A stretch of 64,000 bases of DNA from Thermoplasmatota archaeon (GTDB lineage Archaea > Thermoplasmatota > E2 > DHVEG-1). The notes under the pieces are model-generated. The model made no database searches, was not told the DNA's origin, and was given only the letters and a program-made list of their open reading frames with translations. The position numbers were made by a program, and so were the translations under genes. The stretch is from positions 197,722 through 261,721 of the forward strand of contig JAOZSQ010000001.1 in the NCBI GenBank assembly GCA_029939595.1, given 5' to 3'. Of this stretch, positions 26,451 through 60,323 are shown one piece after another. How positions within the stretch are numbered: position 1 is the first letter of the stretch; each line of letters starts with the position of its first letter.

Positions 26451-29400
26451 ATGGGTCGTGATGATAAAATAAATACTGCTTTAGAGCAGATTATACAACG
26501 ATTAGGAAGTCTTGAAAAGACAGTTAGGGAAAACGAAATTCGTCAAGAAGAGGCGCATAAGATAGCTGTGCCTAAAGAACGAAGGGAACCAATTGATGGT
26601 GTGGATGCTCTGTTACAACATCAACAGAAAGAACAAATTAAAAGAGAACAACTAAGAGATAAATTAAGAAAAAAAGAAAGAACCGAAGATTTTAAAAGAG
26701 AAACTGTAAAAGATAAAAAAGAAGATAAAAGAAGACTAGCTGAAGATATCCAAAAAAAGAAAGAAAAAGAGAAAGAAAAAGTAGAAACTGTAAAAGATGA
26801 AAAGAAAAGAAAAAAAGAAGAATATGTGGCTGAACGAAAGAAGCAAGTTGAAGATGCAAAAGTTCAAAAAGAAGCCGATAAAGCAGCAAAAAAACAAGAA
26901 AAAGAATTAAAGAAAGGGCAGAAAGAAGAAGATTCCTTCTTATATAATAGCGAAAGTGGTTCTGGTGAAGGATTGAATCTTGGTGTAAATGATAATCAAA
27001 CAATGTTTGATTTTGGAGGTTTTGGTGGAAAAGATAAAGAAACCGGTGGATCAAAAGATCCTATAGATGAACCAACAAAACCAGAAAAGAAAATTCCTGA
27101 AACTATACCTAAAAAAACGGAACCAGAAAAGGTTGCTCCCATAGTCAAAAAGCAAACTCCTCCTAAAAGGGTGACACCAATTGCTAGAAAAAAAGTAGCA
27201 ATTGATAAGAAAGTACCTCGCAAAGTTACCGAACAAGATGACATATCCAAAAAAATTCTTGAAGAAGAACCTATTAAAGAACCTATTAAAGAACCTATTA
27301 AATTTCTTGCAAAACCAGTAGAAGCGGAAACCTCTTGTTTAGAGGGGTTATGTAGAGCTTCAACTTTAATTGCTAGAATTGATGAAAATGTACGAAAAAT
27401 TGGTTATAAAGTAGGTATTACTCATTCAAAAATTCAGGTAGCTGCCTTTGCAAAAGGTGGTATAGGTAATGTGTTTTTGGAAGCAGGGGGTATTGTAACT
27501 AAACCTACTGCAATGGCTGTGACAGGGGAAGCTGGTAAGGAAATGGTTATTCCTCTTAAAAAGAGAAGCAAAGAAAAGAAACGATTTCTTGGGGAAGTTG
27601 GTCAGGAAATTGATAAAGTAATTGAGAAAAGAGATGAAAAGAAAGAAGAGAAACAAGAAAAAGAAAAGATAATAGATAGTAAAGAGAAGAAGAAATTAGG
27701 TTTTCTTGAAGAACGAAAACAAGCTAAAGAAGCCAGAGAAGCAGCCAAAGAAGCCGATAAAGCAGCCAAAGAAGTAGAAAAAGATCAAAAAGAGGATGAT
27801 TTTTTATATGAAGGTGGTGGTGAATCTGGTGAAGGAATTAATTTTGGTGTAAATGAGAATCAAACAATGTTTGATTTTGGAGGTCTTGGAGATCTGTTTA
27901 AAAGAAAACCAAAACCTGATAAAACCGATGCTGAAAAACCAAAACCAGGAAAACTAACATTTGAAGAGTTATTTCCTAAAGAAAAAGAAATTCCAGAAGT
28001 AGTTGGGGAACCTGTTAAAAAAGAGAAATTACTTACTTTTGATGAATTGTTTCCAAAACAAAAGAAGCAAATTAAAAAGAAGGAACCAGTTAAAAAAGTA
28101 GAAAAAAAAGTAGAAGAACCGGTTGAAAAGACAATAGAAAAGAAAAAAAGACCTGTTAAGAAAAAAGAACCAGTTGAAGAACCAGTTGAAGAACCAGTTG
28201 AAGAACCAGTTGAAGAACCAGTTGAAAAAGCAGTAGTTGCACCGGTGCCAGTTGAAAAAGCAGTAGTTGCACCGGTGCCAGTTGAGAAAGCAGTAGTTGC
28301 ACCGGTGCCAGTTGAGAAAGCTGAATCTCTAATTGCGCCTCCAGTTCCAATTGCCGAAGGGTTTCCATGTATGGAAGCTCTTTGCGCTAGGGTTTCTACC
28401 ATTGATAGAATTGATGAGAATGTTGAAGCCATTAATAAACGATTTAGAATACCTCTTTCAAAAATAAAGAAACCAAAAGTAGTTAAGTTTGCTAGGGGTG
28501 GTGTTTTAGATACTACAATGGAATATGGTCAGGTATTTGGACCAGGATTGTTTCCAGCAGCACAAGCAGCAGTTGGTGGTGTTATGAGTGGCAAAAATCC
28601 AATGGCGGTTATGGGTGATGTAAAGGAAATGATTGTTCCACTTGATAAAGCAAGTAAGGAAAAGAAAGGTTTTATTGGTGAAATTGCAGACAAGATAAAA
28701 GGTCTTTTCTCAAGAAAGAAAAAAGAAGAAGTTGTTGAGCCAGAACCGGCAGCATCTCCTCTTGGTGGAATAGCAAGTATGATTCCAGGTGGAGATATGA
28801 TCCCTCTGGATATGATTAGTCAGTTTCTTCCTATGGATCAATTGAAAGGTATGATTCCTATGAAAAAGGGTGGAATTATTAAAAAACCTGTTGTGGCTGG
28901 TGAAGCTGGTGATGAAGCGATTGTTCCTCTTGGTAAAGGAAGTAAAGAGAAAGATGCTTTTTTGGATGAGGTAAGTGAAAAGTTGGTTGGTAAAAAAGGA
29001 GACAAGAAAATATCCTTTACTATGTCTAAAATTATTACAACCGGCGATTTGAATAATACTGCACTTATTCAAGAAAAAATAATTGAAAAGAAAAGAGGAA
29101 AACGGCTTTTTACTCAAACAAAACAAACGATTAAATTTACAGATAGAGATAAATTACTTAAAAAAGTAAATGCTATACATAATTCCATAATAAATGAAGG
29201 TGGTGCAAAAGGAAGAACAGAAATTAACTTTCCTGGTTTAGCTGATATAGCTTATGATGCATTTGATATGAATGTATGGGGTCCAGTAATTCAAGCAATT
29301 GATTATTTGGGCGGTGTTGATATGGTTCAAATTGGGGCAGCAATAAAGAATGCGTGGTTGATAGGGAAAAGTGGTAAGGCATTTCAATGTTTGACTAGTC

Positions 29401-32400
29401 CCGAATTTAAAGAACTGGCTAAAATAGATTTTTATGGATTAACTGGTTTAATTGAAGAAATGGCTCGTTTAGATAGCGATCAGATTGTTTCGGCTACTTA
29501 TAATGCGTGGTTATTGGGAAAAATATCAAAACCACTAAGCGTTTTGATTACGAATAAAGATTTACAATCATTTTTGAAGTTGAATTTGGGAGAGGTTTAT
29601 AATTTAGCCATTCTTACTGAAGAATTGGCTGCTCTTCACACTTCTGATATTACCCTTGCCTCATTACATGCATTTATGTTGGGTCAATCCTTCAAGCATT
29701 TTAGCACTGTTATTGACATATCCAAACATATTGGTGATTTGGGAAGTAGAGGATTATTTGGATTTTTTAAAACTGGAATTTTTGCGTTGGTTGACCGATT
29801 ATCCTCATTTAAAACAGGTGATGTTACTCGTGCCTGTCTTCATGCTTGGATGATAGGTAAAGGTTCGCAACAATTAGTATCTGTTGCCGAAGTGATGAAA
29901 TTGAAAATTTTCTCAGGTTGGAGAGAATTTTTTGGTATTGAAGATCCGGTTTCCATAATGGTTAAAAAACTTTCAAGTTTAACAACTTCTGACGTTACCA
30001 GAGCAACTCTAAACGCATTCATTTTGTCTCAAGGTGTTAGATCGTTCAAAGCGGTTGAACAAGTGTCATCATTAGGAAGAAGATTTAGATTTTTTAAGAA
30101 AAAAACAGTCGTAGAAGTGCTCGTTGATGTGGTTAAACAATTAGCTGAAGTGGAAAGATCCCAAGCATTAAGGGCAACTCAAGTGGCACAAGGTCTTGGA
30201 ATGATCGGAGCCAATGTCAAAACATTAAACGAAGTTGCAAAATTAAACAGAAAGAGTTTCTTTATAGCTGGAAACACAATGGTTAAAGATATTTGTGATG
30301 TTGTATCTGGTTTGAGTTTGTTTAATTGGAAAGATATTTTGGTTTTTGCAAGAAACACTTTAGCCATTGCTGGTACAGTTAAATTTACAAAAGATATATT
30401 AGGAGTTACCGAATTAACCAGAAAAAGTTGGGGTTTGATTGGAGATACAGCTATAGATGAGATTACTTTTGTGGTTGAAAAATTAAGTCAATTTTCATTA
30501 AAGGAGATAGGAAGAGCAGTTGTCTTGGCTACTTCTCTAGGAAAGGCTTCGCCCAACTTTATGCAAATTATACCAATCGCACAATTGGGAAGAAAATTTA
30601 TTAGAAAGTCAATAATAGAGGCTATCGCAGGTGTTATTGATGTATTAAAAGAAATTAGTCTAAGAGATATCGTTAGAGTTACCCACAATGTTTTTGCTTT
30701 GGGTTTTAATGCTCCTATGTTCCCGAAGATGAAACCTATAGCTGAATTAATGGGGGCTAGTCATTGGTCTGGTTTTGGTAATGCGTATATTACAGATATT
30801 GGATTAGTTCTTGATAGGATGAAAAATTGGGAACCGGATCAGGTACGAAAATCAGCATTATTGGCTGGTAGTTTGGGACAGGCAGCACCGTTATATTTTA
30901 AAATGATACCTATTTCTAAACTAGCGCAAGGAAGTAAATGGTGGGGTGGTTCTTTAATAATTGATGATATTTCTAAAGTTTTGAAGGTGTTGAGTGCTTA
31001 TAGTTGGTCTGATATTGCCAGAATTAACATATCTGCTTTGGCTCTCGCAATGAATGCTCCGAGTTTTGCTAGAATGTCAATAATTGGGCTTTTGGCAAGA
31101 CCAAGTAGGTTTTGGAGAAAACGAACAATCATTGAAGAAGTTACAACGGTTGTTAATGAGTTGGGAAAATTAGATCAAGCAGATGTTCGTAAGTCGGCTA
31201 TGGTAGCAGGTACACTAGGAAGTCCGGCATTCAAGGGATTGGCTACTATAGGCGAATTACTTGAAAATGAGTCTAAGTATATTTTTTGGGAACATGAAGG
31301 AACCAGTACAATAGATAAAGTAAAACAAATTGTAGGCGAATTTAAACAAATAGATTTGGCCGATGTTTTATTGGCTGCTGGAAAGGCTGCGACATTAGGT
31401 TTACTAACTCCTCAATTCATGAAAATCAAGTTACTTGAACCATTGATTGCCGGACCACGTAAGGGATTCATGGGTCAAATAGGAGACTTTTTCTTAGGCA
31501 AAGAAATAAGTCCAATCGCCAAAGCTAAAATATTGGTGGATGAATTCGCTAAAATTGATACTACTCAAACGGCTCTGGCAGCGGTTAAAGCAGTTATACT
31601 AGGAAAAACCGCATCCAGTTTTCTTGCTGTGCCGGATTTGGGAAGGTTGGTAGCTTACAAATATTGGGGTTTTAGTAATAGGAGACCAGTTGATGATTTG
31701 AAAGATGCTATTGATGGATTATCAGAAATTGATCCTAGAAACGCTGTGAAAGCGGCAGCAAGTGCTTTTGTAATTGGCAAAGGTATGGGTAATTTTGGTG
31801 AGCTTGGTAAGGGCATAGCTGGTTTGTTTAAGAAAAGATTTATTTTCTTTGGAAAGACCAGAATTGAGATGATTACCGATATGGTTGAGCGATTGGGCAA
31901 GTTAAAGCCTACTATGGTTCTGGCAGCGGTAGGAGCATTGGGTGTTGTTAAGGCGGCACTTAAAGCTTTTGATAAAGGTGAAGGTGGAATGGTAATGAGA
32001 AGTATCACCGGATTGAAGAGTTTCTTTGGTGGTATTATGGCATTTGCAAAGGGTGTTGCTGGTGTTGGTATTTGGGTATTAGGAAAAGTATTAAAGAGAG
32101 CAGCCAAAAGTTTAGCAGAAGCTCAAATGCACATGGATATGGTTGGTGAAATCAGTGATAAATTGATGCAGAAGATAAAGGATCTTAAAGAATTTATTAC
32201 TGTTGCTACTGATTTTGGAAAGGTTAAGGGTGCTGTAAAGAGTTTGGAATATATTGCCAAACGGATTGATAATTTTGCAGATATTGAGCGATTGAAAAAT
32301 CTTGATAAAATTGGTTCGGCTATTGAGAATTTGGCAGATACAAAGCAAGTAAAGAAAGCAGTTAAGGGTATGAAGATGATTGCTAAAAACACTGATCAAA

Positions 32401-35400
32401 TGCAACAAATGTCTGGTTTCTTGAAGGATTTTGGTGGTCAGAAATCGTTTAAAACTGGTGGATTCATTCCTGCGGGTAAGGTTGTTACAGGTGCTACTTT
32501 ACACGGACCTGAGATGGTTATTCCAATGAAAGACCCCAAATTCACTGGTGGACCTCCTGAATCTGCAAGTGGATATAAACGTCTAGCAGAATTGGTAGAA
32601 GTATTTGAACGAATAGATCCAGCGAGTATTCCTAAGTTTATTAAAGGAATGTCTTTGTTATCATCTAATTTAAAGACTTTTAAAAAGTTTGAAGGTGCTA
32701 AAACATTGAAGCATTTGGCTATGTCTGTTGATCCGGTATCTGATATCAAGAAAGTGAAACAAGCTGTTAAAGGTATGAAATTGATAATGAGTAATATTAA
32801 GATGCTTGAAGGAGTTAAAGCGGTTCCGAATCTTAAACAATTATCATATCTTATTCATGCGGTTGGTGATTATGATCAAGTGAGAGCGGCTGTGAGAGCC
32901 TTTGATTTGATTACTCCGAGACTTATTGAACTTGGTAAGATTGAAGGCGCAAAAGAAATGCGAAAGATTTTATATGCTGTTCAAGGTCTTTCTAATGAAG
33001 ATGCGATGTATAGTGTTACCACGAGTCTTGAAATGTTGGTTGGTCAAGTTGATAATATGAAGAAGATAGGAAGTGTTGGGGAATTAACTAATATATCGTA
33101 TGCTGTTGAAGGGTTATCCAATATTAAGAAAACTGGTTTTGCATTACTTAGTATGTTCTTGTTGGCTAAACGAGTGAAGGATTTTAAGGCATTGGAAGGT
33201 GTTGGCGTACTTCAGAATGTGGTGAATGCTGTAGATGGTTTATCTAGTCCAGTTAAAACAGCAATGGCTATTGGTAGTATGTGGATGTTGAGTAAACGAG
33301 TGGATGATTTCAAGAAAATGGAAGTTGTACCAAACTTGTTGAATCTTTCAATGGCGGTTGATGATCTTTCTCAGATTTGGAAAGTAATAAAAATGATTGC
33401 CGGAGTGAAGTTAATTTCTAAATTTATTACCAGTTTCCAGAAACTTCAAGGTATAGGTGAATTAGAAAAGATTGCATATTCGGTGGATAAGTTGTCTCAA
33501 ACAGGAAAAGTGATGAAAATGATTTTCAATGTTTGGGCAATTTCTAAGTTTGTGGGTAGTTTCCAGAAACTTCAAGGTATAGGTGAGTTGGATAATATTG
33601 CGTATTCAATAGACAAATTATCTCAAACCAAGAAAGTAATGAAGATGATTCTCAATATCAAAATGATTAAAAAATTTGCTATTGATGATATGAAAAAGTT
33701 GGCTGCGATTGATGAGTTGAATTCGTTGATAAGAGTGGTTGAAAAGTTATCTCGTTTTGGAAAGGTATTAAAGAGTATTATTGCCATTAAAATGTTGGGT
33801 GGTCAAAAGAAGAGTTTTGAGAAAATCAGAGAAATAAATGAAATAATAAACGGCATACCTCATTTTAAAACAAATATGGCAGTTATTACAGGTATCGGTT
33901 TAGCCAGCCCGTTAATAAAGAAGGCGGTTAAAGTGATTAAATTTATGGGTAAGAATTCCGAAGAAATTAAGAAAGTGAGTGTTCTTAATGCGTTTGATGA
34001 ATTAGGTGATTTCTTTGATGTAGTGAAAAAAGTTGGTGCAATGGGTGTTCTTGGATTTGCTTCTAAATCAATGATTAAAGCGGTTGATGTTGTGAAAGAA
34101 TTGGGAGCGGTCCCAACGTCAGTATTTGAAGATCTTGGCGATAACTTGGCTGTAATATCTAAAACTGAAATTCATTTGTTTAAGTCAATGAAAATAATGG
34201 GTGGATTGGGTTTTTCAAGGAAACTAATAAAGAATGCTATTAAAAGTATTCAAATGTTACAAGATAATAAAGATCTAATAGCCACTCTTGATCAACTCCA
34301 GTTTCCTAAAGATATGAGTAATTTACAAGTATTAATATCATTAGGTGAACAAAAAGATTCTATTGAAAGAGCTATGAAGAGTATTGAAAAACTCAATGAA
34401 AACATGGGTATTATTAAGAGTATTGATATAGAGGCTTTCAATAGGTTAGGCAAGGTATCTGTTGGTGTGCGTGGTTTGGGACAATTAGAACATGTTAATA
34501 AGAATATAAAGGTATTGAAAGGCATTGAGAAAGATGGTGAAACAATAATTCGTGCTTCAGAAATATTGAAGCAAGCCGGATTTACTATTGGTGAATCTAA
34601 AGGTGAAAAGATGGGAGCCAAAGCTGAAGATGTGTTAGCTGGAATGACAGAAAAGGGTGCAAAAGCGAAGGAGAAAGGAAAAGAACTGTTTGATAGTGTT
34701 AAAGGTGTTGATATTAAAGGTAAGGGTACTGAAGCCTATGAAAAAGGTAAAGGATTAGTAGCTGGATTGTTTAAGAAAAAAGAAAAGAAAGTTGAAGAGG
34801 GTTTAACTGGTGCTGCTGATAAAGTGGATAAAATGAAGGAGAAGGGTGATGTAGAAGCTGAACCGAAGGCAGGATTGGGATTTATTGGTGGATTAAAGAA
34901 GAAAGCTTTTGGTTTAATGGATGAAATGAAGACTGTTAAAGAAGAAACCAAAGGCGAGGAGAAGGTAGAAGGGAAAGGATTTTTGGATAAGTTGAAAGAA
35001 CAGAAAGAAGATTTATTAGAGAAAGCTAAAGGTGTAAAAGAGAAGGTAGTTGGTACAGTTACTCCTAAAGAAGAAGAGGTTGGATTTACAACTGGTCGTC
35101 AAGATTTAGATAAAACAATGGAAGGTGGTTATGAAAAGCCATTAAAGAAGAAAGTAGGTGATTTTGTAACTGGTAAAATGCAAGAATTTGGTCTTGGTGA
35201 TCTTACAAAAACTGATAAAAGTAAAGAATTAGTTGGTTATTTGAAAGATAAGAAAAAGGAAGGAGTTGATTATGTAAAAGGTAAAGCGGATGAAGCTGGT
35301 GATAGTTTAGGTTCCAAGAAAGATATAGTAGCAAAATATGTAACGGATCAATATGGTGCGGTTACTAAGGTTGTTGTTGATTACTTTGGCAAATCAAAAG

Positions 35401-38060
35401 AATATACTGTTGAGCAATATAAGAATTTAAGAGAATATGTAGATGCGAAAGTTGAAAGTGTTAAAACTGCGGTTAAACCCAAACCAAAACCAGTGGAAGA
35501 GGTTAAACCGGTAGATGTGGGCGAAGCAAAGGCAGAAGCGGTAGCCAAGAAACAACAAGCCAAAATACTCCAATTTCCAACAGAAGTGGAAGAAGCCAAG
35601 AGAGCTTTACAAGCTAAAAGAGAGGGAATAGAAGTAGTTAAAGCTGATGCTGGTGGTGTGGTTAATGCGGTTAATTCGGAAGAATTGGTATTACCAGGAA
35701 TAGATGGAAAGAATAAGAAGGTTACAGAAGGGTTTGCAAAGACTTTTGGATCAAAGGTAGCTGAATCGGAACCATTTCAAAAGGTAATAGAAATTTCTGG
35801 AGAAAAGACAGCCAGTAATGTGGTTGGATGGTTGGAAAGTCCGATTGGGAAGATAACTGAATGGGTAGAGAGTAAGAGGCAATCTGAAAAGAAAGTGGAA
35901 TCTAGTGTGGGAGATCTTTATCAACAGGAACAAACGAAAAAAGAACATGAACAAGCTGTTGCTCTTGAGTCGGATCGGAAACAGGTTGAATTGGTAGATA
36001 CTATTGAACAAGGTAAAGTTCCACCACCAACAATACAAACAATAGATGCTACAAGAGAAACACAAGCTAGGCATCTTACAATGGAACAAACTAACACTAA
36101 ACGAGTATTGGATAAACTTGAAGGTATGAATGTTGGAACTGCTGCTGGTGCTGGTGCTGGTGGAGATTCTGAAAAGAATAAATTTAATATGCCAGGATTG
36201 CCACCTATACCTCTTCCTTTTGTTAGAAGAAAACCAAAGGTTAAACCAAAACCAAAGGTTAAACCAAAACCAAAGGTTAAACCAAATGTTAAACCAAATG
36301 TTAAACCAAAACCAAAGGGACGATTTAGTTTTAAGAAACCTGTTGCTGGTGCTGTTGCTCCGCCTAAGATCAAGTTAGATGTGCCAAAAGAAGCACCTAA
36401 AGCAAAAGGTGGATGGTTAAGCAAAGCATGGGGTTGGACTAAAAAGGCAGCAGGAAAGGTTGTTAAGTTTGTTAAGAGTGTTGGAAGTTTTCTAAAACAA
36501 GGAAAGAAAACTATAATGAGGTATCTTAAACCAATTGGAAAATATGTTGGTAAATTGGTTGCTGGTTCGGCAAGAGGTCTTGGGAAGTTTGCTAAGAAAA
36601 TACCTTTATTGAGTATTTTGTTTGCGATTTGGGATGGTGTTCAAACGTATAAAGATGCAAGTAAGATGAAAGCCGAAGGTAAGTCTCCACGAACCATTGC
36701 TTTAAAAACTATTCCATCTATAGCAGGTATTGTTGGTGAATTGGTTGGTGGTGCATTAGGAACCTTTTTAGGAACTATTCCTCCACTTACATTTTTTGGT
36801 GGTACTTTTATTGGTGGTCTTCTTGGTGGATTTGGAGGTAAAAAGTTATTTAAATGGTTGTTTGGAATGCCAGCAGTTGCAGGTTGGATTGCTGATGCAA
36901 TGGGATTTACTGAGGCGAATGATGCAGCCTGGAAGAAGGATATGGAAGAAAAGGAAAAGGAAAAATCAGCAGAAACATCTCCTCCTGAAGTGGATATACC
37001 TAAATCGGAAGGAGCAGCAGCACCTCAAGAGGGTACGCCTGTGGATGAGGCTGCGCCTCAAGAGGGTACGGATGCTGAGTTGCCTAATGAAGAACCGGTT
37101 GATGCACCAAAAGAACCAGATATGCCAACGATTCCGAAGATACCAAGTCCTTCTCCTGTGGATAAAGGTGGTGTTTCAATGCAGAGAGGTGGGCTTGTTG
37201 GTGAAGGTGAAACAGTAAATGCAACTTTGCATGGTCCTGAGATAGTTATTCCATTGAAAAAGAAAGATGCAAAGGGTTTAAAAACTGTTCATGGAAAGGG
37301 TACTTTCAAGGAACCAGCTAAGTTTAAAGAACAAGCTCTTCTTCAGTTTAAGAAAATGAAGTTGAGAGGTGTTTCAAAAACAGCATTAGAAAAAGTAATG
37401 GATAGTCATCCTTTATTTAAGAAACATAAAAAATACTTTTTAGAACAGTTATATAATGCAAAAGGAACTAAAAAGAAGGGAACAAGTGGAAAAGTTGGAA
37501 GACCAAAAGGTGGTGTAAAAGCCAAACCAATGCCAGATTTAGGAAAAGTTGTTGTTGGGTCGGCTGGATCTGGAACATTTGGGGCAACTGTTGAAGAAAG
37601 TGTTATTAGTGATGGTAAAGGTGAAACTAAACAAGGATGGGTTAAATCATCAAAGAATGTTCCTGGTGTTGCTAAGAAGTTTTTGATTAATATGATGGAC
37701 AGGATTGATAAAGGTGATAGTTTTTCAGCAGAGGAATCAGATAAGTTCATAAATATGGCATCTCAGTTTGGAGTTCCTTCTAAATATTGGCATTCGGGTT
37801 TGAAGTTAAAAGTACATGATACACAGAAGGCACTCAAACATCAAGCGTTACAAAGAAAGAAAGTAGAAAAGCGAGTGGCGGGTGAAACTTCACGAGTGGA
37901 TGAAGCAGCGGGTAAAGCAAAAATATTGCCGTTTCCAGTTATGCAACCACAAGCTCCTCCACAGGCTCCTCCTCAACCAAGTAGTAATGAGAGTGTAATG
38001 GTTGCAACGGGTGATAAATCATTTGCACATATGTTATATAACATTTATCAATATGGGTAA
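26451..38060 (+). CDS. tail tape-measure protein (3,869 aa)
   Basis: Position after tube and chaperone. Five copies of G-E-A-G-x-E-x-I-V-P-L-like motifs. ~40-aa periodic aromatic/Ala repeats across about 5 kb. K/E coiled coils. C-terminal Gly-rich hydrophobic segments. Confidence 0.7.
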   Translation: MGRDDKINTALEQIIQRLGSLEKTVRENEIRQEEAHKIAVPKERREPIDGVDALLQHQQKEQIKREQLRDKLRKKERTEDFKRETVKDKKEDKRRLAEDIQKKKEKEKEKVETVKDEKKRKKEEYVAERKKQVEDAKVQKEADKAAKKQEKELKKGQKEEDSFLYNSESGSGEGLNLGVNDNQTMFDFGGFGGKDKETGGSKDPIDEPTKPEKKIPETIPKKTEPEKVAPIVKKQTPPKRVTPIARKKVAIDKKVPRKVTEQDDISKKILEEEPIKEPIKEPIKFLAKPVEAETSCLEGLCRASTLIARIDENVRKIGYKVGITHSKIQVAAFAKGGIGNVFLEAGGIVTKPTAMAVTGEAGKEMVIPLKKRSKEKKRFLGEVGQEIDKVIEKRDEKKEEKQEKEKIIDSKEKKKLGFLEERKQAKEAREAAKEADKAAKEVEKDQKEDDFLYEGGGESGEGINFGVNENQTMFDFGGLGDLFKRKPKPDKTDAEKPKPGKLTFEELFPKEKEIPEVVGEPVKKEKLLTFDELFPKQKKQIKKKEPVKKVEKKVEEPVEKTIEKKKRPVKKKEPVEEPVEEPVEEPVEEPVEKAVVAPVPVEKAVVAPVPVEKAVVAPVPVEKAESLIAPPVPIAEGFPCMEALCARVSTIDRIDENVEAINKRFRIPLSKIKKPKVVKFARGGVLDTTMEYGQVFGPGLFPAAQAAVGGVMSGKNPMAVMGDVKEMIVPLDKASKEKKGFIGEIADKIKGLFSRKKKEEVVEPEPAASPLGGIASMIPGGDMIPLDMISQFLPMDQLKGMIPMKKGGIIKKPVVAGEAGDEAIVPLGKGSKEKDAFLDEVSEKLVGKKGDKKISFTMSKIITTGDLNNTALIQEKIIEKKRGKRLFTQTKQTIKFTDRDKLLKKVNAIHNSIINEGGAKGRTEINFPGLADIAYDAFDMNVWGPVIQAIDYLGGVDMVQIGAAIKNAWLIGKSGKAFQCLTSPEFKELAKIDFYGLTGLIEEMARLDSDQIVSATYNAWLLGKISKPLSVLITNKDLQSFLKLNLGEVYNLAILTEELAALHTSDITLASLHAFMLGQSFKHFSTVIDISKHIGDLGSRGLFGFFKTGIFALVDRLSSFKTGDVTRACLHAWMIGKGSQQLVSVAEVMKLKIFSGWREFFGIEDPVSIMVKKLSSLTTSDVTRATLNAFILSQGVRSFKAVEQVSSLGRRFRFFKKKTVVEVLVDVVKQLAEVERSQALRATQVAQGLGMIGANVKTLNEVAKLNRKSFFIAGNTMVKDICDVVSGLSLFNWKDILVFARNTLAIAGTVKFTKDILGVTELTRKSWGLIGDTAIDEITFVVEKLSQFSLKEIGRAVVLATSLGKASPNFMQIIPIAQLGRKFIRKSIIEAIAGVIDVLKEISLRDIVRVTHNVFALGFNAPMFPKMKPIAELMGASHWSGFGNAYITDIGLVLDRMKNWEPDQVRKSALLAGSLGQAAPLYFKMIPISKLAQGSKWWGGSLIIDDISKVLKVLSAYSWSDIARINISALALAMNAPSFARMSIIGLLARPSRFWRKRTIIEEVTTVVNELGKLDQADVRKSAMVAGTLGSPAFKGLATIGELLENESKYIFWEHEGTSTIDKVKQIVGEFKQIDLADVLLAAGKAATLGLLTPQFMKIKLLEPLIAGPRKGFMGQIGDFFLGKEISPIAKAKILVDEFAKIDTTQTALAAVKAVILGKTASSFLAVPDLGRLVAYKYWGFSNRRPVDDLKDAIDGLSEIDPRNAVKAAASAFVIGKGMGNFGELGKGIAGLFKKRFIFFGKTRIEMITDMVERLGKLKPTMVLAAVGALGVVKAALKAFDKGEGGMVMRSITGLKSFFGGIMAFAKGVAGVGIWVLGKVLKRAAKSLAEAQMHMDMVGEISDKLMQKIKDLKEFITVATDFGKVKGAVKSLEYIAKRIDNFADIERLKNLDKIGSAIENLADTKQVKKAVKGMKMIAKNTDQMQQMSGFLKDFGGQKSFKTGGFIPAGKVVTGATLHGPEMVIPMKDPKFTGGPPESASGYKRLAELVEVFERIDPASIPKFIKGMSLLSSNLKTFKKFEGAKTLKHLAMSVDPVSDIKKVKQAVKGMKLIMSNIKMLEGVKAVPNLKQLSYLIHAVGDYDQVRAAVRAFDLITPRLIELGKIEGAKEMRKILYAVQGLSNEDAMYSVTTSLEMLVGQVDNMKKIGSVGELTNISYAVEGLSNIKKTGFALLSMFLLAKRVKDFKALEGVGVLQNVVNAVDGLSSPVKTAMAIGSMWMLSKRVDDFKKMEVVPNLLNLSMAVDDLSQIWKVIKMIAGVKLISKFITSFQKLQGIGELEKIAYSVDKLSQTGKVMKMIFNVWAISKFVGSFQKLQGIGELDNIAYSIDKLSQTKKVMKMILNIKMIKKFAIDDMKKLAAIDELNSLIRVVEKLSRFGKVLKSIIAIKMLGGQKKSFEKIREINEIINGIPHFKTNMAVITGIGLASPLIKKAVKVIKFMGKNSEEIKKVSVLNAFDELGDFFDVVKKVGAMGVLGFASKSMIKAVDVVKELGAVPTSVFEDLGDNLAVISKTEIHLFKSMKIMGGLGFSRKLIKNAIKSIQMLQDNKDLIATLDQLQFPKDMSNLQVLISLGEQKDSIERAMKSIEKLNENMGIIKSIDIEAFNRLGKVSVGVRGLGQLEHVNKNIKVLKGIEKDGETIIRASEILKQAGFTIGESKGEKMGAKAEDVLAGMTEKGAKAKEKGKELFDSVKGVDIKGKGTEAYEKGKGLVAGLFKKKEKKVEEGLTGAADKVDKMKEKGDVEAEPKAGLGFIGGLKKKAFGLMDEMKTVKEETKGEEKVEGKGFLDKLKEQKEDLLEKAKGVKEKVVGTVTPKEEEVGFTTGRQDLDKTMEGGYEKPLKKKVGDFVTGKMQEFGLGDLTKTDKSKELVGYLKDKKKEGVDYVKGKADEAGDSLGSKKDIVAKYVTDQYGAVTKVVVDYFGKSKEYTVEQYKNLREYVDAKVESVKTAVKPKPKPVEEVKPVDVGEAKAEAVAKKQQAKILQFPTEVEEAKRALQAKREGIEVVKADAGGVVNAVNSEELVLPGIDGKNKKVTEGFAKTFGSKVAESEPFQKVIEISGEKTASNVVGWLESPIGKITEWVESKRQSEKKVESSVGDLYQQEQTKKEHEQAVALESDRKQVELVDTIEQGKVPPPTIQTIDATRETQARHLTMEQTNTKRVLDKLEGMNVGTAAGAGAGGDSEKNKFNMPGLPPIPLPFVRRKPKVKPKPKVKPKPKVKPNVKPNVKPKPKGRFSFKKPVAGAVAPPKIKLDVPKEAPKAKGGWLSKAWGWTKKAAGKVVKFVKSVGSFLKQGKKTIMRYLKPIGKYVGKLVAGSARGLGKFAKKIPLLSILFAIWDGVQTYKDASKMKAEGKSPRTIALKTIPSIAGIVGELVGGALGTFLGTIPPLTFFGGTFIGGLLGGFGGKKLFKWLFGMPAVAGWIADAMGFTEANDAAWKKDMEEKEKEKSAETSPPEVDIPKSEGAAAPQEGTPVDEAAPQEGTDAELPNEEPVDAPKEPDMPTIPKIPSPSPVDKGGVSMQRGGLVGEGETVNATLHGPEIVIPLKKKDAKGLKTVHGKGTFKEPAKFKEQALLQFKKMKLRGVSKTALEKVMDSHPLFKKHKKYFLEQLYNAKGTKKKGTSGKVGRPKGGVKAKPMPDLGKVVVGSAGSGTFGATVEESVISDGKGETKQGWVKSSKNVPGVAKKFLINMMDRIDKGDSFSAEESDKFINMASQFGVPSKYWHSGLKLKVHDTQKALKHQALQRKKVEKRVAGETSRVDEAAGKAKILPFPVMQPQAPPQAPPQPSSNESVMVATGDKSFAHMLYNIYQYG
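28167..28316 (+). repeat. in-frame tandem repeats: 12 bp x4 (EPVE) then 30 bp x3 (KAVVAPVPVE), inside the tape-measure gene
   Basis: Direct inspection. Confidence 0.7.
36229..36318 (+). repeat. in-frame 15/18-bp tandem repeats encoding (KPKPKV)n, inside the tape-measure gene
   Basis: Direct inspection. Confidence 0.7.
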
Positions 38061-38063
38061 GAT

Positions 38064-39560
38064 ATGACAACAATTTTAAGATATCCATTAGAACCAGAAG
38101 TGGCGGATGCTTATCCTCATTTAAAATTTGAGGCATTTACTTATGGTATGCCCAAACCGGATGGATCTTCTGGAAACGAGTCAAGTACACAGGAGAAGGA
38201 AGGTGTAATGTTGAAAGTAGGGGCTAAGTTGGTTGAGATACGAACTTATATTCCGCCTAGTGCAATGAAAAATGCTGTAAGTTCTGATTGGCAATTGGAA
38301 GATGCTATGTTGGTTGGTAGTAAAACATTGGATCAATTAACAAGTTTTAAAGGAATAGTAGATTTAGCGGAAGGATTTGTACAATCAATTGATTTATCTG
38401 GAATGGCACAAACATTAGTAAATAACAATAAATATATTAAATTAGGTGCAGGGTTTATGAATACCATTTCTTCCTCAATGGGTAAGACTCAGATGCCTAG
38501 TAAAATTCCTATTTTTAAAGGTACTCAATTACATAATCCTCAATTTCAATTTGATTTTGATCCTTATAGTTTGAATGAAGCGAAAGAGGTTAATACAATA
38601 GTGAAGATGTTTGAAGCATTAGCAAAACCAATAATGAACAAAATGACATTGGCAAAATTGGGTGCTGCATTTGGTACTAGTGGTCCTATGGGCGCACTTA
38701 TAAAAAAGGCAACAAGTTATTTAACCAGGGGTATTATATTTTTAGATTTTCCACCTTTATGGAAAATTACTGTAATGGATGGTTCTAGTAGTGATCCAGT
38801 TACCAATTTTATGTATGATAAATCGGATTATTATGCAATAACAACTGTTGATTCAACAGCGGGTGAAGGTGCTGAATATAATTATTTTCATGGAAAAGCA
38901 AAATATCCAGTTAAAACAAATTTAAGTGTTACATTTCAGTCTATGTATCCACCACGACACAAAGACAAACAACCAAGTAAAGCGGATAGTTGGCCTGGAG
39001 GCGCAAAGGAAAGATGGCCACAAATAGTGAAACATATTGCGACATTATATGAAGGAGGAAATACTACTGAAACAATGACGAATAAAGGTATTGCTTCGGT
39101 TACTAGGAGATTGCCAAGGTCAACATCTCAATATAGGTCAAGAGGTGCAAATACATCAACCCCAACTGCTGGAACTAATACTTCAAGTGGAGCTAATCAA
39201 GGTGGAGCTAATCAAGGTGGAGCTAATCAAGGTGGAGCTAATCAAGGTGGAGCTAATCAACCAAATGCTAATCAACCAAATGCTAATCAACCAAATGCTA
39301 ATCAACCAAATACGGGTGCAGGAGCTACAGCCCAACAAGGTGATGGTACTACTCAAGAACAGAATCAGCAACCAAATCCTGATAATAATCCAGTGGTTGA
39401 TCAAGCGAATGCAAATGCTGCAAATACGGCAAAAGGTAGAACAACAAGTTATTCTTCAAGTTCGGGTTCAAGTGATGAAGAAATGAGTGCTGAAGAAGCT
39501 AAAGCTAAAGCTAAAGAGGCTGCTCTTGAAGAAGCTTGGAGAAATCAAACTGGTATGTAA
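38064..39560 (+). CDS. tail/baseplate protein following the tape measure (possible Mu gp43-like), with GANQ/ANQPN tandem repeats and an acidic tail
   Basis: Position. N-terminal YPHLKFEAFTYGMPKP loosely resembles Mu gp43 HLQPASFRGVPF. Repeats at 39189-39312. Confidence 0.35.
   Translation: MTTILRYPLEPEVADAYPHLKFEAFTYGMPKPDGSSGNESSTQEKEGVMLKVGAKLVEIRTYIPPSAMKNAVSSDWQLEDAMLVGSKTLDQLTSFKGIVDLAEGFVQSIDLSGMAQTLVNNNKYIKLGAGFMNTISSSMGKTQMPSKIPIFKGTQLHNPQFQFDFDPYSLNEAKEVNTIVKMFEALAKPIMNKMTLAKLGAAFGTSGPMGALIKKATSYLTRGIIFLDFPPLWKITVMDGSSSDPVTNFMYDKSDYYAITTVDSTAGEGAEYNYFHGKAKYPVKTNLSVTFQSMYPPRHKDKQPSKADSWPGGAKERWPQIVKHIATLYEGGNTTETMTNKGIASVTRRLPRSTSQYRSRGANTSTPTAGTNTSSGANQGGANQGGANQGGANQGGANQPNANQPNANQPNANQPNTGAGATAQQGDGTTQEQNQQPNPDNNPVVDQANANAANTAKGRTTSYSSSSGSSDEEMSAEEAKAKAKEAALEEAWRNQTGM
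39189..39312 (+). repeat. in-frame 15-bp tandem repeats (ggagctaatcaaggt x5; gctaatcaaccaaat x4)
   Basis: Direct inspection. Confidence 0.7.
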
Positions 39561-39570
39561 GGAATAAATT

Positions 39571-40095
39571 ATGGCAAAATATAAAACATTTTCATTTATG
39601 GATCAGTTCTTTCCTACAACGATTGATCTGACCGATTTTATTAAAAAATTTTCAACCGATGAATATAAGATAGAATTTAGTAACTATCAACCATTGGTAG
39701 TTACCACAGTAAATCTTTTTGAACAGATTTCTTTTGATTTTAAAAAATCCGCTCAGAATATAGCTTTTGAACATTATGTTATTCAAGAAGGTGAGAAAAT
39801 AGAAGCAGTTGCTAGAAAGTTTTATGGTGATAATGATTATTGGTGGGTTATTATCTTATTAAATGAGATGAAGGTTCCACTTTTTGATTGGCCAATGAAT
39901 GACGATCAACTCAAAGAACTTTCAGCTTTGCTAGTTAAAAAAGAGAATAAATATACATATAAGACTTATTATAAGCTTTTATTTGAACAAAACGAAGATA
40001 AAAGGGCGATTATTTTATTGAAACCTCAACATGTGGATTCTTTGGTTGAGGCTTTTAGATCTTATTTTTATGAAATTCAAGGAATTCGGATGTAA
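39571..40095 (+). CDS. LysM-like tail protein X family
   Basis: HYVIQEGEKIEAVARKFYGDNDYWWVIILLNE parallels P2 gpX ALQGDTLDAICVRYYGRTEGVVETVLAANP. Confidence 0.55.
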   Translation: MAKYKTFSFMDQFFPTTIDLTDFIKKFSTDEYKIEFSNYQPLVVTTVNLFEQISFDFKKSAQNIAFEHYVIQEGEKIEAVARKFYGDNDYWWVIILLNEMKVPLFDWPMNDDQLKELSALLVKKENKYTYKTYYKLLFEQNEDKRAIILLKPQHVDSLVEAFRSYFYEIQGIRM

Positions 40096-40098
40096 ATC

Positions 40099-41469
40099 AT
40101 GGCTGAAAGTAGTTCTCCAGATATTAATTTTTCCATTGTTGGTATAGTTATTGGCGGTGAAGATAGAGGTGTTATTATTAACCCCAAAGACAGTCCAATT
40201 GAAAGGTTGGAATTCTTTGAGAGTTTAACTTTTCCAGGAATTACTGGAAATTTGGTTTTTAAAGATGATCAAGGTGCATTGGAATTAGGAAACAAAGCCG
40301 GAGCGTTGGTAACGGCTGGAGATGAAATTATGATAAGTTTCCGAGCCAAAGAACAATCGCCTATTACAGTTAAATATACTATTTATGCTATTCAAGAAAT
40401 GCCAATGACGAGTGCAAAAGCAATTCTTTCTAGTGTTTCTTTTTGTTCTACATGGGTTTATGAAGCCTTTACACGTAAAGAACCGATTAAATTTTGTAAT
40501 GATGAAGAACCTTTTACTATTAGCTCTATTGTAAGTAAAATTATTAAGGAATGTGGAGGTGAGACTAAAAATTCAACTACTCCCTCTATTATTAAAAAAA
40601 CATTAGATAAACAGATTGAAAGATTTCTTTCACCTTTTTGGACACCAATACAAACAATTAAATATTTTATGGATTTTGCTTTAAGTCAGGATACTTATGG
40701 TGGATATGTTATTTGGACCAATTTTAAACAACCAACTCCAGGAAAAGAAATAGTTAATTTTGCACCCATTTCTTATTTTTTTGGTGATGAAAAAGAGAAT
40801 GATGATGAGGGATTACCAAAGGGTTCTTCAATGTGTAAAGGCATTTTGAGAATTGGTGGAGAAAATCCAGATGCTAGTCAAAACGATATAAAATCATTCA
40901 ATCCAGAAAAAGGCGTAGATGATTTTAAATTTGCTAATTTGGGGGCTTCTAATTCAAAAATTTGTGGTTTTGATTTTGATAGGACAAAACGGGTGGAAAT
41001 TGATACCGGATTATTAAATTATAAACACCCTCATTTTGGCACCAAATTCCCTCTTATAAAGAAATTTAATAAAACGGAATATCGGAGTATTAAACAAACT
41101 ACTTTGTACCCTCAGACTACGTATTTGATTGAAAATGAGGAAAATGTAAAGGACATGTTGAAGGGAAAATTATTTACTAAATATTCTTTATTATTTGCAG
41201 ATTTTTTTGTTATAAATGTCCAGTTATTTGGTGAAATGACTGATCGGGAAGTTGGGAAAAAGATCATGTTATTGGTTCCTTCTATTGATGAACATATGAA
41301 AGGTAAACCCAACAGGAAATATAGTGGAACCTATATTATAAGAAATATAAGGCATGTAATGGCATCAGGAAAATATTATCATTTTGCAACTTTAATATCG
41401 GATGGTTATAAAGAAATCCAAGACGGAGCGGAGGACCCTGATTTGACTTTGATGAGGTGGAAAACATAA
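40099..41469 (+). CDS. baseplate hub candidate (P2 gpD / Mu gp44 position)
   Basis: Gene order TMP-(gp43-like)-X-hub-spike. No motif-level confirmation. Confidence 0.4.
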   Translation: MAESSSPDINFSIVGIVIGGEDRGVIINPKDSPIERLEFFESLTFPGITGNLVFKDDQGALELGNKAGALVTAGDEIMISFRAKEQSPITVKYTIYAIQEMPMTSAKAILSSVSFCSTWVYEAFTRKEPIKFCNDEEPFTISSIVSKIIKECGGETKNSTTPSIIKKTLDKQIERFLSPFWTPIQTIKYFMDFALSQDTYGGYVIWTNFKQPTPGKEIVNFAPISYFFGDEKENDDEGLPKGSSMCKGILRIGGENPDASQNDIKSFNPEKGVDDFKFANLGASNSKICGFDFDRTKRVEIDTGLLNYKHPHFGTKFPLIKKFNKTEYRSIKQTTLYPQTTYLIENEENVKDMLKGKLFTKYSLLFADFFVINVQLFGEMTDREVGKKIMLLVPSIDEHMKGKPNRKYSGTYIIRNIRHVMASGKYYHFATLISDGYKEIQDGAEDPDLTLMRWKT

Positions 41470-41777
41470 TGTTACAAAAAGAAATAGCTTTATTTGATAA
41501 TAATATAACATTAGAAGGAATATATATCGGTGAGGTGATAAGTGGTAAAGATCCAAAAATGAGGGGAAGAGCTTTAGTACGTATAATTGGGTTGCATGAT
41601 TTTGAAGACGAGGACGAATCTAATAGTATTTGGGCTGAAATGTGTAGTCCAACCCAACATGGTTTTGAGGCACCGGAGATTGGGAATTTTGTTTATATAA
41701 TGTTTCGTAGTAAGTTTGACCCAAGTTCGGCAATTTATTTGGGTTATGTTAATAGTAATTTTGTGGATGGCATATAA
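41457..41777 (+). CDS. central spike N-terminal OB-fold domain protein (gpV / gp5 N-terminal-like)
   Basis: GIYIGEVISGKDPKMRGRALVRI......SIWAEMCSPTQHGFEAPEIGNFVYIMFRSKFDPSSAIYLGYV matches the gpV/gp5 OB-domain pattern (G.V...D....RvrV......S.W.r...p.aG...g....PevGdeV.V.F..GD...P...G). Confidence 0.6.
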   Translation: MENIMLQKEIALFDNNITLEGIYIGEVISGKDPKMRGRALVRIIGLHDFEDEDESNSIWAEMCSPTQHGFEAPEIGNFVYIMFRSKFDPSSAIYLGYVNSNFVDGI

Positions 41778-50504: not shown

Positions 50505-50511
50505 GGAATAT

Positions 50512-60290: not shown

Positions 60291-60320
60291 GCAACCGACA
60301 CAAATGTATCGGTTGCCGAT
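60291..60320. terminator. bidirectional hairpin between convergent genes
   Basis: gcaaccga cacaaatgta tcggttgc. Confidence 0.45.
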
Positions 60321-60323
60321 TAG

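Follow-up and report, generated by a model that had tools for sequence, protein, structure and literature searches.

A putative tail tape measure protein of 3,869 residues, encoded in the gp29 slot of a huge uncultured T4-like phage

The question raised by this locus is what a single open reading frame of 3,869 codons encodes within a T4-type tail module. The ORF (26451..38060; all features described here are on the + strand) is the longest in the window, i.e. the whole 64-kb stretch of DNA that was analysed, which belongs to a contig of 426,929 bp. A sequence-only reading had proposed an exceptionally long tape measure protein (TMP). In our view it is probable that the ORF encodes a TMP that is the functional counterpart of T4 gp29, in a huge uncultured contractile-tailed phage with a T4-type baseplate.

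The uninterrupted frame that had been claimed was confirmed: it is stop-free, and a strong Shine-Dalgarno sequence (AGGAG, 26441..26445) lies 5-6 nt ahead of the ATG at 26451, with none at the other in-frame starts inside the ORF. Only 3 nt separate the stop codon from the next gene. Since 3,869 codons are stop-free in DNA with a local GC content of 32-39%, a chance origin is excluded. An assembly or annotation artefact, in which neighbouring genes were fused or repeats were collapsed or expanded, is in our estimation hardly credible. It might be suspected from the fact that the exact protein is missing from a collection of 15 billion proteins in which both tested neighbours are present, and from the near-perfect tandem arrays found in the DNA (12 nt x5.8, 30 nt x3.5 and 18 nt x4.6). 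However, these arrays, which map to 28165-28321 and 36230-36318, are short and in frame (all periods are multiples of 3, the longest array is 104 bp) and the large protein repeats reach DNA identities of at most 74-81%, therefore the collapse of repeats that the earlier reading had considered is unlikely. The uniform coding strand and GC skew across the ORF, and the sheer length of a stop-free frame of 11.6 kb in AT-rich DNA, also argue against an artefact. A promoter and terminator scan gave matches at chance level.

The neighbouring genes are those of a T4-type tail. Three tandem tail-tube paralogs of 204, 184 and 227 aa (23573..25433; phrog_45, E 2e-26, 1.7e-26 and 1.3e-16, respectively), the middle one of which matches T4 gp19 in the PDB (E 0.008), are followed by a T4 gp26-like baseplate hub subunit (25457..26233; PF12322, E 7e-27) that has tblastn matches to annotated gp26 in T4-like phages. 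Downstream of the giant ORF there is a gp48-like baseplate tail-tube cap (38064..39560; phrog_230, E 1.7e-13, with a weak PF11091 match) and then a gp53-like wedge protein, a tail protein of phrog_350 and hub proteins of the gp5/gp27 type (39571..43390, with the gp5/gp27-like pair at 41457-43390). The gene order is thus tube x3, gp26-like, giant ORF, gp48-like, gp53-like, tail protein, gp5-like, and the giant ORF has the placement by which a TMP is recognised, between the tube/chaperone genes and the hub/tube-initiator genes. The same slot is occupied in T4 by gp29 (baseplate hub subunit / tail length determinator), whose gene is directly followed by gene 48, and in Aeromonas phage Aeh1 by a 615-aa protein (NP_944076) directly downstream of gp26; the gp48-gp53-tail protein-gp5 block of Aeh1 also has the order seen here. 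No sheath gene was recognised within the 64-kb window, and a 664-aa ORF at 20716-22710 had no match, tblastn against 50,697 GenBank phage records included. Other giant ORFs without matches, of 1,776 and 1,358 aa, are found nearby.

The second line of evidence is a sequence motif, FAxGG...GEAGPEAIIPL, that is a hallmark of a large TMP subclass. The string GEAGPEAIIPL has at least 120 exact matches in IMG/VR. In a sample of 85, the motif-bearing ORFs were long (median 722 aa, maximum 2,082 aa), the motif was located at a median of 90% of the ORF length, and 80 of the 85 contained a single copy. When ten were sampled at random, eight corresponded to the PHROG annotation 'tail length tape measure protein' and four matched a Pfam TMP domain, one of them under the cutoff. 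The motif profile also matches solved TMPs, namely those of phiCD508 (gp59, PDB 9g8s) and an F-type pyocin (PyoF5, PDB 25vf). The motif is absent from T4 gp29 and Aeh1 p198, and lambda gpH has only a short FA.GG / H.GE.V pattern in common with it. The TMP of TP901-1 was also considered as a carrier, and the motif was not found there on checking. In lambda the equivalent region belongs to the N-terminal portion of gpHC and adjoins a Gly-rich zone of cleavage (PMC12617516). The literature surveyed describes no function for the motif, whose site in lambda gpH is prone to cleavage and not resolved in the structure.

A profile built from IMG/VR TMPs only matches the giant ORF at five sites, and a six-frame scan of the 64-kb window showed that it matches nothing else there. 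Copies 1, 3 and 5 score above all 200 shuffles (best shuffle score 3.2 bits). Copy 1 (GGIGNVFLEAGGIVTKPTAMAVTGEAGKEMVIPL; 27456..27557, aa 336-369) reaches 26.8 bits and copy 3 (GGIIKKPVVAGEAGDEAIVPL; 28866..28931, aa 806-827) 23.2 bits, the latter within a phrog_27648 match (aa 806-917) to a family that in two IMG/VR TMPs likewise spans the region around the motif. Copy 2 (28497..28643, aa 683-731) is a degenerate FARGGV...MGDVKEMIVPL with 0.3 bits, recognised by its internal similarity to copy 1. Copy 4 is a variant (GGFIPAGKVVTGATLHGPEMVIPM; 32457..32528, aa 2003-2026) with 1.6 bits; with copy 5 it shares 53% identity (E 2e-6; z=12, 0/300 shuffles). Copy 5 (GGLVGEGETVNATLHGPEIVIPL; 37188..37256, aa 3580-3602; 6.0 bits) lies 267 aa before the C-terminus, which is the canonical position in TMPs. 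The consensus of the five copies is FAxGG...GE(A)GPE..(I/V)(I/V)P(L/M). Taken together, the gene order (T4 29 to 48; Aeh1 gp26 to the gp29-position protein) and the C-terminal motif make the TMP identity proposed by the sequence-only reading well supported, as a reading of sequence and context.

The protein has a repetitive architecture. At the N-terminus there are two tandem modules of about 350 aa and a short third one. Copy 1 (26808..27665, aa ~120-405) consists of a K/E helix, a GEGLNLGVNDNQTMFDFGG box, a Pro/Lys linker, a CxxxC helix and motif 1, and copy 2 (27690..28745, aa ~414-765) was recognised by its similarity to copy 1 (aa 121-192 vs 414-480, 56% identical, E 5e-11; aa 301-405 vs 645-765, 39% identical, E 3e-16). 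They are followed by a repeat array, R1, of 16 units of about 57 aa (29292..31940, aa 948-1830; iterated HMM, unit spacing 50-68 aa), whose unit has a two-helix core I-D-x-I-x-x-V-V-x-x-L-S ... A-x-x-L-G. A second array, R2 (32166..34460, aa ~1906-2670), contains at least 11 clear 42-aa units with a spacing of 41-44 aa; the units are related to the R1 core, and the array is broken by motif 4. The nested repeats show that the giant ORF grew through internal duplication. In this it contrasts with the TMP of phage G, which is free of repeats, and with myovirus TMPs at large, which according to a recent survey are typically without tandem repeats (PMC13585406). A macro-duplication of a whole TMP-like unit (R1, hydrophobic segment and motif 4 vs R2, hydrophobic segment and motif 5) was also considered, but similarity outside the motif is weak (z=3).

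R2 on its own matches the NCBIfam XopAD/SKWP model (NF041399) with E 3e-9 over ~400 aa, and the match depends on direction and order, i.e. reversed or shuffled R2 gives none. The XopAD/SKWP (RipS) type III effectors are likewise built of long arrays of 42-residue alpha-helical HEAT/ARM-like repeats. With 33-35 bits (34.7) against a family cutoff of 2,000, the likeness is best read as a resemblance, not as family membership. Moreover, the effectors belong to type III secretion and R2 to a phage tail context, and no pairwise match to plasmid-borne genes was seen: tblastn of R2 against plasmids, including the Ralstonia megaplasmids with RipS genes, returned nothing. A leucine-rich repeat fold for R2 was rejected, given that the PDB matches were marginal (E 1e-3, whole-protein search), the models are all-helical, and the direction-specific SKWP match is stronger.

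The K/E-rich segments (aa 1-160, 380-460 and 2700-3200), the Pro/Lys-rich linkers (aa 200-290, 490-640 and 3240-3300) and the Gly-rich hydrophobic region at about 36.4-36.9 kb, all described earlier, are indeed present by composition and hydrophobicity. The description of the K/E segments as coiled coils did not hold up as well: a crude scan assigned a canonical heptad pattern to no more than about 212 of the 3,869 residues, and the segments look more like charged single helices. For instance, a K/E-rich run of 105 residues free of Pro and Gly (26601..26915, aa 51-155) would resemble an ER/K charged single helix. Long helices are predicted in a K/E/G-rich region (34536..35471, aa 2696-3007), in a low-confidence model with a pLDDT of 50-77 here. 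One Pro/Lys linker contains a KPKV/KPNV tandem micro-repeat found by DNA repeat scan (18 nt x4.6; 36230..36318). A first hydrophobic Gly/Ala-rich segment is located at 31911..32093 (aa 1821-1881); in the C-terminal third, where TMPs have a hydrophobic Gly-rich segment, amphipathic and Gly-rich hydrophobic helices (36417..36947, aa 3323-3499), including a stretch of 33 uncharged residues (aa 3431-3463), form a candidate membrane-insertion region according to hydrophobicity and the model. In the model, the C-terminal region (37257..38057, aa 3603-3869) contains a small helical domain as well as a terminal helix (aa 3857-3867, FAHMLYNIYQY); the analogous segments of the diffocin TMP (795-817) and of lambda gpHC (818-849) make it a candidate hub/spike anchor (PMC10996793, PMC12617516). 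The last 550 aa thus have the canonical build of a TMP end, with Gly-rich hydrophobic helices, linker, motif, ~270 aa and a terminal helix. Two single-sequence AlphaFold2 models, from which only the secondary structure was taken because of their low confidence (pLDDT 38 and 47), are essentially strand-free with 70% and 48% helix, and the predicted helices are short (median 13 residues). With the reservation that the helix content comes from these models, the protein is mainly alpha-helical and the longest of its module, as is typical of TMPs.

The homology searches count against the TMP reading, in as much as they returned no curated TMP domain at threshold and no homologue. In Pfam no family matched the giant ORF at E<=0.1 (PF10145, PF20155, PF09718 and PF06791 included), and among the NCBIfam TMP models, where TIGR01760 belongs, only RcGTA_tape responded (E 0.036, 13.8 bits vs a cutoff of 220). 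The best blastp E value against T4 gp29 was 0.36, with ~0 bits in phmmer. No significant similarity to Aeh1 p198, lambda gpH or phage G gp183 was found, and for lambda gpH its domain Tape_meas_lam_C (PF09718) was likewise without a match. Megablast and tblastn against the 50,697 GenBank phage records found no homologue of the giant ORF, the queries being the 25-kb region, aa 1-3000, aa 3000-3869 and the motif peptide. A search for homologous proteins with aa 800-2000 and aa 3290-3869 had no match, and an exhaustive HMMER search of aa 900-2099 against 1.84 billion representatives gave 0 matches; as the giant protein itself is missing from the protein collection, very long proteins may be under-represented there. 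Scans of viral contigs with the giant C-terminus, the gp48-like and phrog_350-like proteins and the NQTMFDFGG pattern were empty, as were scans of genome and metagenome contigs with aa 1101-1800 and of metagenomes with the NQTMFDFGG pattern. A search for contigs encoding one of the neighbouring proteins did not place it either.

It is instructive to compare the protein with known tape measures. The 615-aa Aeh1 protein resembles the C-terminal part of the giant in its composition: both have stretches rich in K/E, a hydrophobic segment rich in Gly, and a linker, of KPKP type in Aeh1 and similar to the KPKV/KPNV linker of the giant. On the other hand, the giant is 6.5 times longer and has no detectable sequence similarity to T4 gp29 or the Aeh1 counterpart, and T4 gp29 and Aeh1 p198 are without the motif and the tandem repeat arrays. 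The motif-bearing TMPs (PHROG TMP families, phiCD508 gp59, PyoF5, RcGTA tape measure) have FAxGG(I/V)V...GE(A)GPE(A)(I/V)(I/V)PL in common with the giant, as well as hydrophobic Gly-rich helices before the motif and a C-terminal anchor after it, but they are 200-2,100 aa long, mostly with one copy, while the giant has five and is without PF10145, PF20155 and PF09718. Bacillus phage G, a huge contractile-tailed phage as well (~0.5 Mb), likewise has a giant TMP, gp183. This protein differs by the absence of sequence similarity and of any motif copy, and it has virtually no internal repeats; moreover, it follows frameshifted tail chaperones and has an annotated lysin activity, whereas the giant, which is free of enzyme domains, comes after gp26 in an arrangement of the T4 type. 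The TMP of Thermus phage P23-45 / P74-26 is another multi-thousand-residue protein; it sets an extreme tail length and shows that additional functions can be built into giant TMPs (10.1101/2022.12.01.518664). Its phage is a siphovirus, however, and its N-terminal part is an RNA polymerase, a domain that the giant lacks. Hence the label 'exceptionally long' is justified relative to the sampled motif-bearing TMPs and to phage G (2,893 aa), but the protein is not a record, as the P23-45 TMP has 5,002 aa.

A tail of ~0.5 um is plausible if the published ratios can be transferred. Phage G gp183 spans a 450-nm contractile tail at ~0.156 nm per aa, being roughly half helix and half coil (PMC8570332), the 817-aa diffocin TMP spans 138.8 nm with a short-helix 'globular' segment that is linear in the lumen (PMC10996793), and the P23-45 TMP spans 800 nm (10.1101/2022.12.01.518664); applied to the giant, such ratios would give 344-658 nm. 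During assembly, several TMP copies would thread the tube lumen with the C-terminus anchored on the hub/spike, and tube polymerisation would stop at the TMP N-terminus, so that the tail would measure several hundred nm, within that range. Upon infection the TMP would be expelled ahead of the DNA and the hydrophobic helices might help to form a membrane conduit. Against so long a tail, the short helices and the HEAT/ARM-like R2, if folded in the virion, would give far less than 0.15 nm per residue. The earlier suggestion that parts of the chain are not length-measuring and that the protein also serves ejection or channel functions fits the Gly-rich hydrophobic region, although this region is no argument against a ruler role, since such regions are normal in TMPs.

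The latter suggestion leads to an alternative that we regard as a tentative one, rather unlikely but deserving attention, namely that the product is either a polyprotein or a composite of ruler and cargo. The measuring would then be done by one part of the chain alone, e.g. from motif 4 to motif 5 (~1,550 aa, ~230 nm), and the N-terminal modules and/or the HEAT-like arrays would be passengers. These would be removed by cleavage close to the internal motifs, in the manner of lambda gpH, or else be ejected and refold beyond the tube as effector or conduit domains. The ratio in phiKZ-type phages is lower, ~0.09 nm per aa, in keeping with such a partial ruler. The five motif copies are what one might expect of this arrangement, given the single copy in most ordinary motif-bearing TMPs, but the degenerate copies 2 and 4 may be duplication relics. 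Motif 4 is preceded by a hydrophobic Gly-rich segment just as motif 5 is, while the flanks of the two are barely similar (z=3). As for cleavage, lambda gpH yields gpH* and gpHC, with the motif-equivalent region next to the cleavage zone (PMC12617516), but internal starts with a Shine-Dalgarno sequence are absent from the giant ORF. As for cargo, an RNA polymerase is fused to the P23-45 TMP (10.1101/2022.12.01.518664) and the direction-specific match of R2 is to repeats of type III needle effectors (PMC3878972), yet searches of the giant ORF with Pfam, PHROG and NCBIfam revealed neither a protease or enzyme domain nor any other cargo. Finally, short helices need not mean folded passengers, as the short-helix segments of diffocin also lie extended in the lumen (PMC10996793). 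We further speculate that the five anchor-type motifs might be functional boundaries of a concatenated multi-unit TMP, processed near the internal motifs and delivering several products through the tail, namely the N-terminal modules and the SKWP-like alpha-solenoid arrays; the arrays would pass the lumen in an extended state and, once ejected, refold as a trans-envelope conduit or an effector. This we hold to be clearly unlikely.

Still less probable, indeed very unlikely, is that the protein is no ruler at all but a giant component of the baseplate, of a fibre or of the virion interior that has TMP-like motifs, the true TMP being encoded elsewhere in the 427 kb. The unmatched TMP domain models, the 64 kb of genome in view and the two other match-less giant ORFs nearby would be compatible with this. 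However, the ORF sits precisely where T4 has gene 29, the all-alpha prediction has no beta-rich fibre signature, the motif occurs nowhere else in the 64-kb window and the C-terminal architecture is canonical for TMPs.

If the giant ORF is a TMP and its whole chain measures, this phage of at least 427 kb would have a contractile tail of ~0.35-0.65 um, at or beyond that of phage G, which has the longest well-characterised myovirus tail found in the literature surveyed (PMC8570332). As a putative ruler, the protein would provide a clear example of lengthening by nested tandem duplication of helical units. The FAxGG...GEAGPEAIIPL motif offers a practical marker for TMPs that escape the domain models, and the five-copy protein is a natural test bed for the function of the motif. 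Were the concatenated, processed TMP to prove true, phage tape measures would be linked mechanistically to type III-secreted repeat effectors.

The window is occupied by a phage tail and baseplate module in which nearly every gene lies on one strand and the GC skew is uniformly positive; at about 60.3 kb (window about 60300-64000) the coding strand turns minus and the sign of the GC skew flips, and here the long structural block on the plus strand ends. Upstream of the giant ORF (26451-38060, plus strand), which encodes a putative tail tape measure protein (TMP), there are a gp6-like wedge protein (7535-10336; phrog_219, E 2e-69), three tandem tube paralogs of the T4 gp19/gp54 type (23573-25433; 204, 184 and 227 aa; phrog_45), one of which matches T4 gp19 in the PDB (E 0.008), and, immediately after these, a gp26-like hub subunit (25457-26233; PF12322, E 7e-27). 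Downstream follow a gp48-like tube cap, a gp53-like wedge protein, a phrog_350 tail protein and gp5/gp27-like hub proteins. In T4, the tail-length determinator is the product of gene 29, and gene 48 comes directly after it. In Aeromonas phage Aeh1, a protein of 615 aa (p198) comes next after gp26; it has stretches rich in K/E, a hydrophobic segment rich in Gly and a KPKP linker, and the genes for gp48, gp53, a tail protein and gp5 form a block ordered as in the window. These two gene orders put the giant ORF in the gp29 slot.

No sheath gene was recognised within the 64-kb window; a 664-aa ORF at 20716-22710, of T4-sheath-like size and in a plausible sheath position, had no match in PHROGs, Pfam, NCBIfam, PDB or GenBank phages. 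Four small ORFs (19166-19753, 19789-20610, 22774-23085 and 23088-23501) have a common C-terminal domain of about 65 aa, matching the same PHROGs (8309, 16122, 30556, 34633, 21918) annotated as fibre, decoration or virion structural. Two more giant ORFs, of 1,776 aa and 1,358 aa (TTG start), overlap by 32 nt at 45174-54549 and have no PHROG matches; they probably encode fibre or baseplate periphery proteins, and the 1,776-aa ORF has only sub-threshold Pfam matches (MgtE_N and DUF6756). An anti-repressor (Ant/KilAC-like) gene (6258-7052; phrog_5817, E 1e-30) sits inside the structural module, between baseplate genes, and the 217-nt spacer from the gp26-like gene to the giant ORF (26233-26450) may include a small ORF, about 36 codons long (MDNLMPFEFDLYYNMCVNDRNEEVKQSKKKEGQIML).

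Both the ORF listing and the translation bear out a single ORF of 3,869 aa without interruption. Its ATG is preceded by AGGAG (26441-26445), no strong SD was found at other in-frame starts, and the next gene starts 3 nt after its stop. At the DNA level, the only repeats are micro-arrays, short and in frame (12 nt x5.8 and 30 nt x3.5, both within 28165-28321; 18 nt x4.6 at 36230-36318), and the large protein repeats are 74-81% identical at most as DNA; an assembly collapse or fusion is therefore unlikely, and so is the view that the ORF is an artefact.

A pattern GG-(x)n-G-E-x-G-x-E-x-[IV]-[IV]-P-[LM] is common to five places of the giant protein (aa 336-369, 683-731, 806-827, 2003-2026 and 3580-3602; copies 1-5). 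Whether such a pattern marks TMPs was examined with the exact peptide GEAGPEAIIPL, which matched IMG/VR at least 120 times; in the 85 complete ORFs among the matches listed (median 722 aa, maximum 2,082 aa) it lies at a median of 90% of the length, in the context FAxGG(I/V)VtxPt..l(v)GEAGPEAIIPL. Eight out of 10 such ORFs drawn at random matched the PHROG "tail length tape measure protein", four had Pfam PhageMin_Tail or TMP_3 (one below cutoff), and in two phrog_27648 spans the motif region. A profile (A1), built solely from 30 IMG/VR motif windows, matches two solved TMPs in the PDB, phiCD508 gp59 (9g8s) and the F-type pyocin PyoF5 (25vf). In the giant it finds exactly the five sites (26.8, 0.3, 23.2, 1.6 and 6.0 bits; best of 200 shuffled controls, 3.2 bits), and in the six-frame window nothing outside them. 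The two weak copies are supported by similarity within the protein, since the module of copy 2 is 39% identical to that of copy 1, and copies 4 and 5 share 53% identity (z=12). The motif is absent from T4 gp29, Aeh1 p198, TP901-1 TMP and phage G gp183, i.e. it does not appear in every TMP sequence. Counting weak extra matches of 2-4 bits, 80 of the 85 ORFs carry a single copy and no ORF exceeds three. A few TMPs of ordinary size carry two strong copies (IMG/VR loci L075, at aa 999-1038 and 1455-1511 of 1,597, L006 and L019), so motif duplication recurs in TMP evolution.

The N-terminal part (aa 1-860) consists of two tandem modules of about 350 aa and a short third one. In each ~350-aa module a K/E helix is accompanied by a conserved GEG(L/I)N.GVN(D/E)NQTMFDFGG box, a linker of Pro, Lys and Glu that contains micro-repeats, a helix with CxxxC and a copy of the motif. 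Then come R1, an array of 16 units of ~57 aa (aa 948-1830), a hydrophobic Gly/Ala-rich segment (aa 1821-1881), and R2 (aa about 1906-2670), an array of at least 11 clear 42-aa units that copy 4 interrupts. The R1 HMM also picks up the R2 core, thus the arrays share an ancestral two-helix unit of ~39 aa. They are followed by long K/E/G-rich helices (aa 2696-3007), KPKV repeats (aa about 3255-3290), amphipathic and Gly-rich hydrophobic helices (aa 3323-3499), an acidic Pro-rich linker (aa 3500-3572), copy 5 and a C-terminal region (aa 3603-3869; predicted final helix aa 3857-3867). The last 550 aa reproduce the ordinary TMP C-terminal layout. Of the features in the sequence-only reading, the Pro/Lys linkers and, at 36.4-36.9 kb, the Gly-rich hydrophobic region are both present; its K/E coiled coils stand as K/E-rich segments, but the 105-residue run at aa 51-155, lacking Pro and Gly, has little heptad signal and resembles a charged single helix. 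Single-sequence AlphaFold2 gave pLDDT 38 (aa 1335-2465) and 47 (aa 2670-3869), so the 3D models are unusable; DSSP on them gave 70% and 48% helix, with helices of 13 residues at the median, virtually no strand, and coil at copies 4 and 5. For phage G gp183 a similar make-up is reported, 50% helix and 44% coil (PMC8570332).

Pfam gave no family and NCBIfam none above cutoff for the giant ORF, and PHROGs gave unknown-function families only (best phrog_27648, aa 806-917). NCBIfam NF041399 (SKWP/XopAD) matched aa 1910-2447 (E 8e-9) and R2 alone (E 3e-9, 34.7 bits, far under the family cutoff), and nothing in reversed R2, shuffled R2 or R1, thus composition or period alone does not account for the match, which requires the residues in their order and direction. 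SKWP/RipS proteins carry the annotation of effectors with HEAT/armadillo repeats (PMC3878972). R2 had no tblastn match in plasmids, and at sequence level the relation is a resemblance only. The giant has no record in a collection of 15 billion proteins, so giant ORFs are possibly under-represented there and the lack of homologues weighs less; the gp48-like and 664-aa proteins, which share one 426,929-bp NCBI contig, are singleton clusters. The phage, huge and uncultured, stands alone in sequence space.

By the class-level criteria that sequence allows to be examined, the giant would work like a TMP, and the gp29 slot and the motif uphold this identity. No curated sequence model recognises it, and by sequence it falls outside the gp29, gpH (lambda) and phage G gp183 families. 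The slot, the motif and the fold class make it unlikely that it is not a ruler at all. That it is a ruler plus cargo, or a polyprotein, is the less likely reading: motif multiplicity, the SKWP-like arrays, the RNA polymerase fused to the P23-45 TMP and the lambda motif region, which lies next to where gpH is cleaved (PMC12617516), speak for it, but an enzyme or protease domain was not found in the giant, and copies 2 and 4 look degenerate. The length called exceptional does exceed phage G (2,893 aa) and all 85 motif-bearing ORFs, but P23-45 is longer (5,002 aa). What is unusual is the five-fold motif, the complete absence of relatives and a tandem series of ~30 helical repeats within a T4-type tail. 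Phage G gp183 is repeat-free, and a recent survey reports tandem repeats to be typically missing from myovirus TMPs (PMC13585406).

Given the position, motif, composition and repeat structure observed here, established TMP biology suggests that the C-termini of the protein copies would be anchored on the hub/spike, as at 795-817 of the diffocin TMP and 818-849 of lambda gpHC (PMC10996793, PMC12617516). The copies would span the growing tube and their N-termini would halt polymerisation. In diffocin a predicted-globular short-helix segment runs linearly in the lumen (PMC10996793), which takes some force from the objection that repeats made of short helices cannot act as a length ruler. The protein may later be ejected, its hydrophobic helices joining a membrane channel, a role shown for lambda gpH* (PMC12617516) and proposed for T4 gp29 and phiCD508 gp59 (PMC11948020). 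The predicted tail, put at about half a micrometre before, would measure 580 nm at 0.15 nm/aa, 604 nm by the phage G ratio, 658 nm by the diffocin ratio and 344 nm by a phiKZ-like ratio of 0.089 nm/aa, taken from phiKZ figures. T4 has one major tube gene; the several tube species of this phage might be connected with building or initiating a very long tube.
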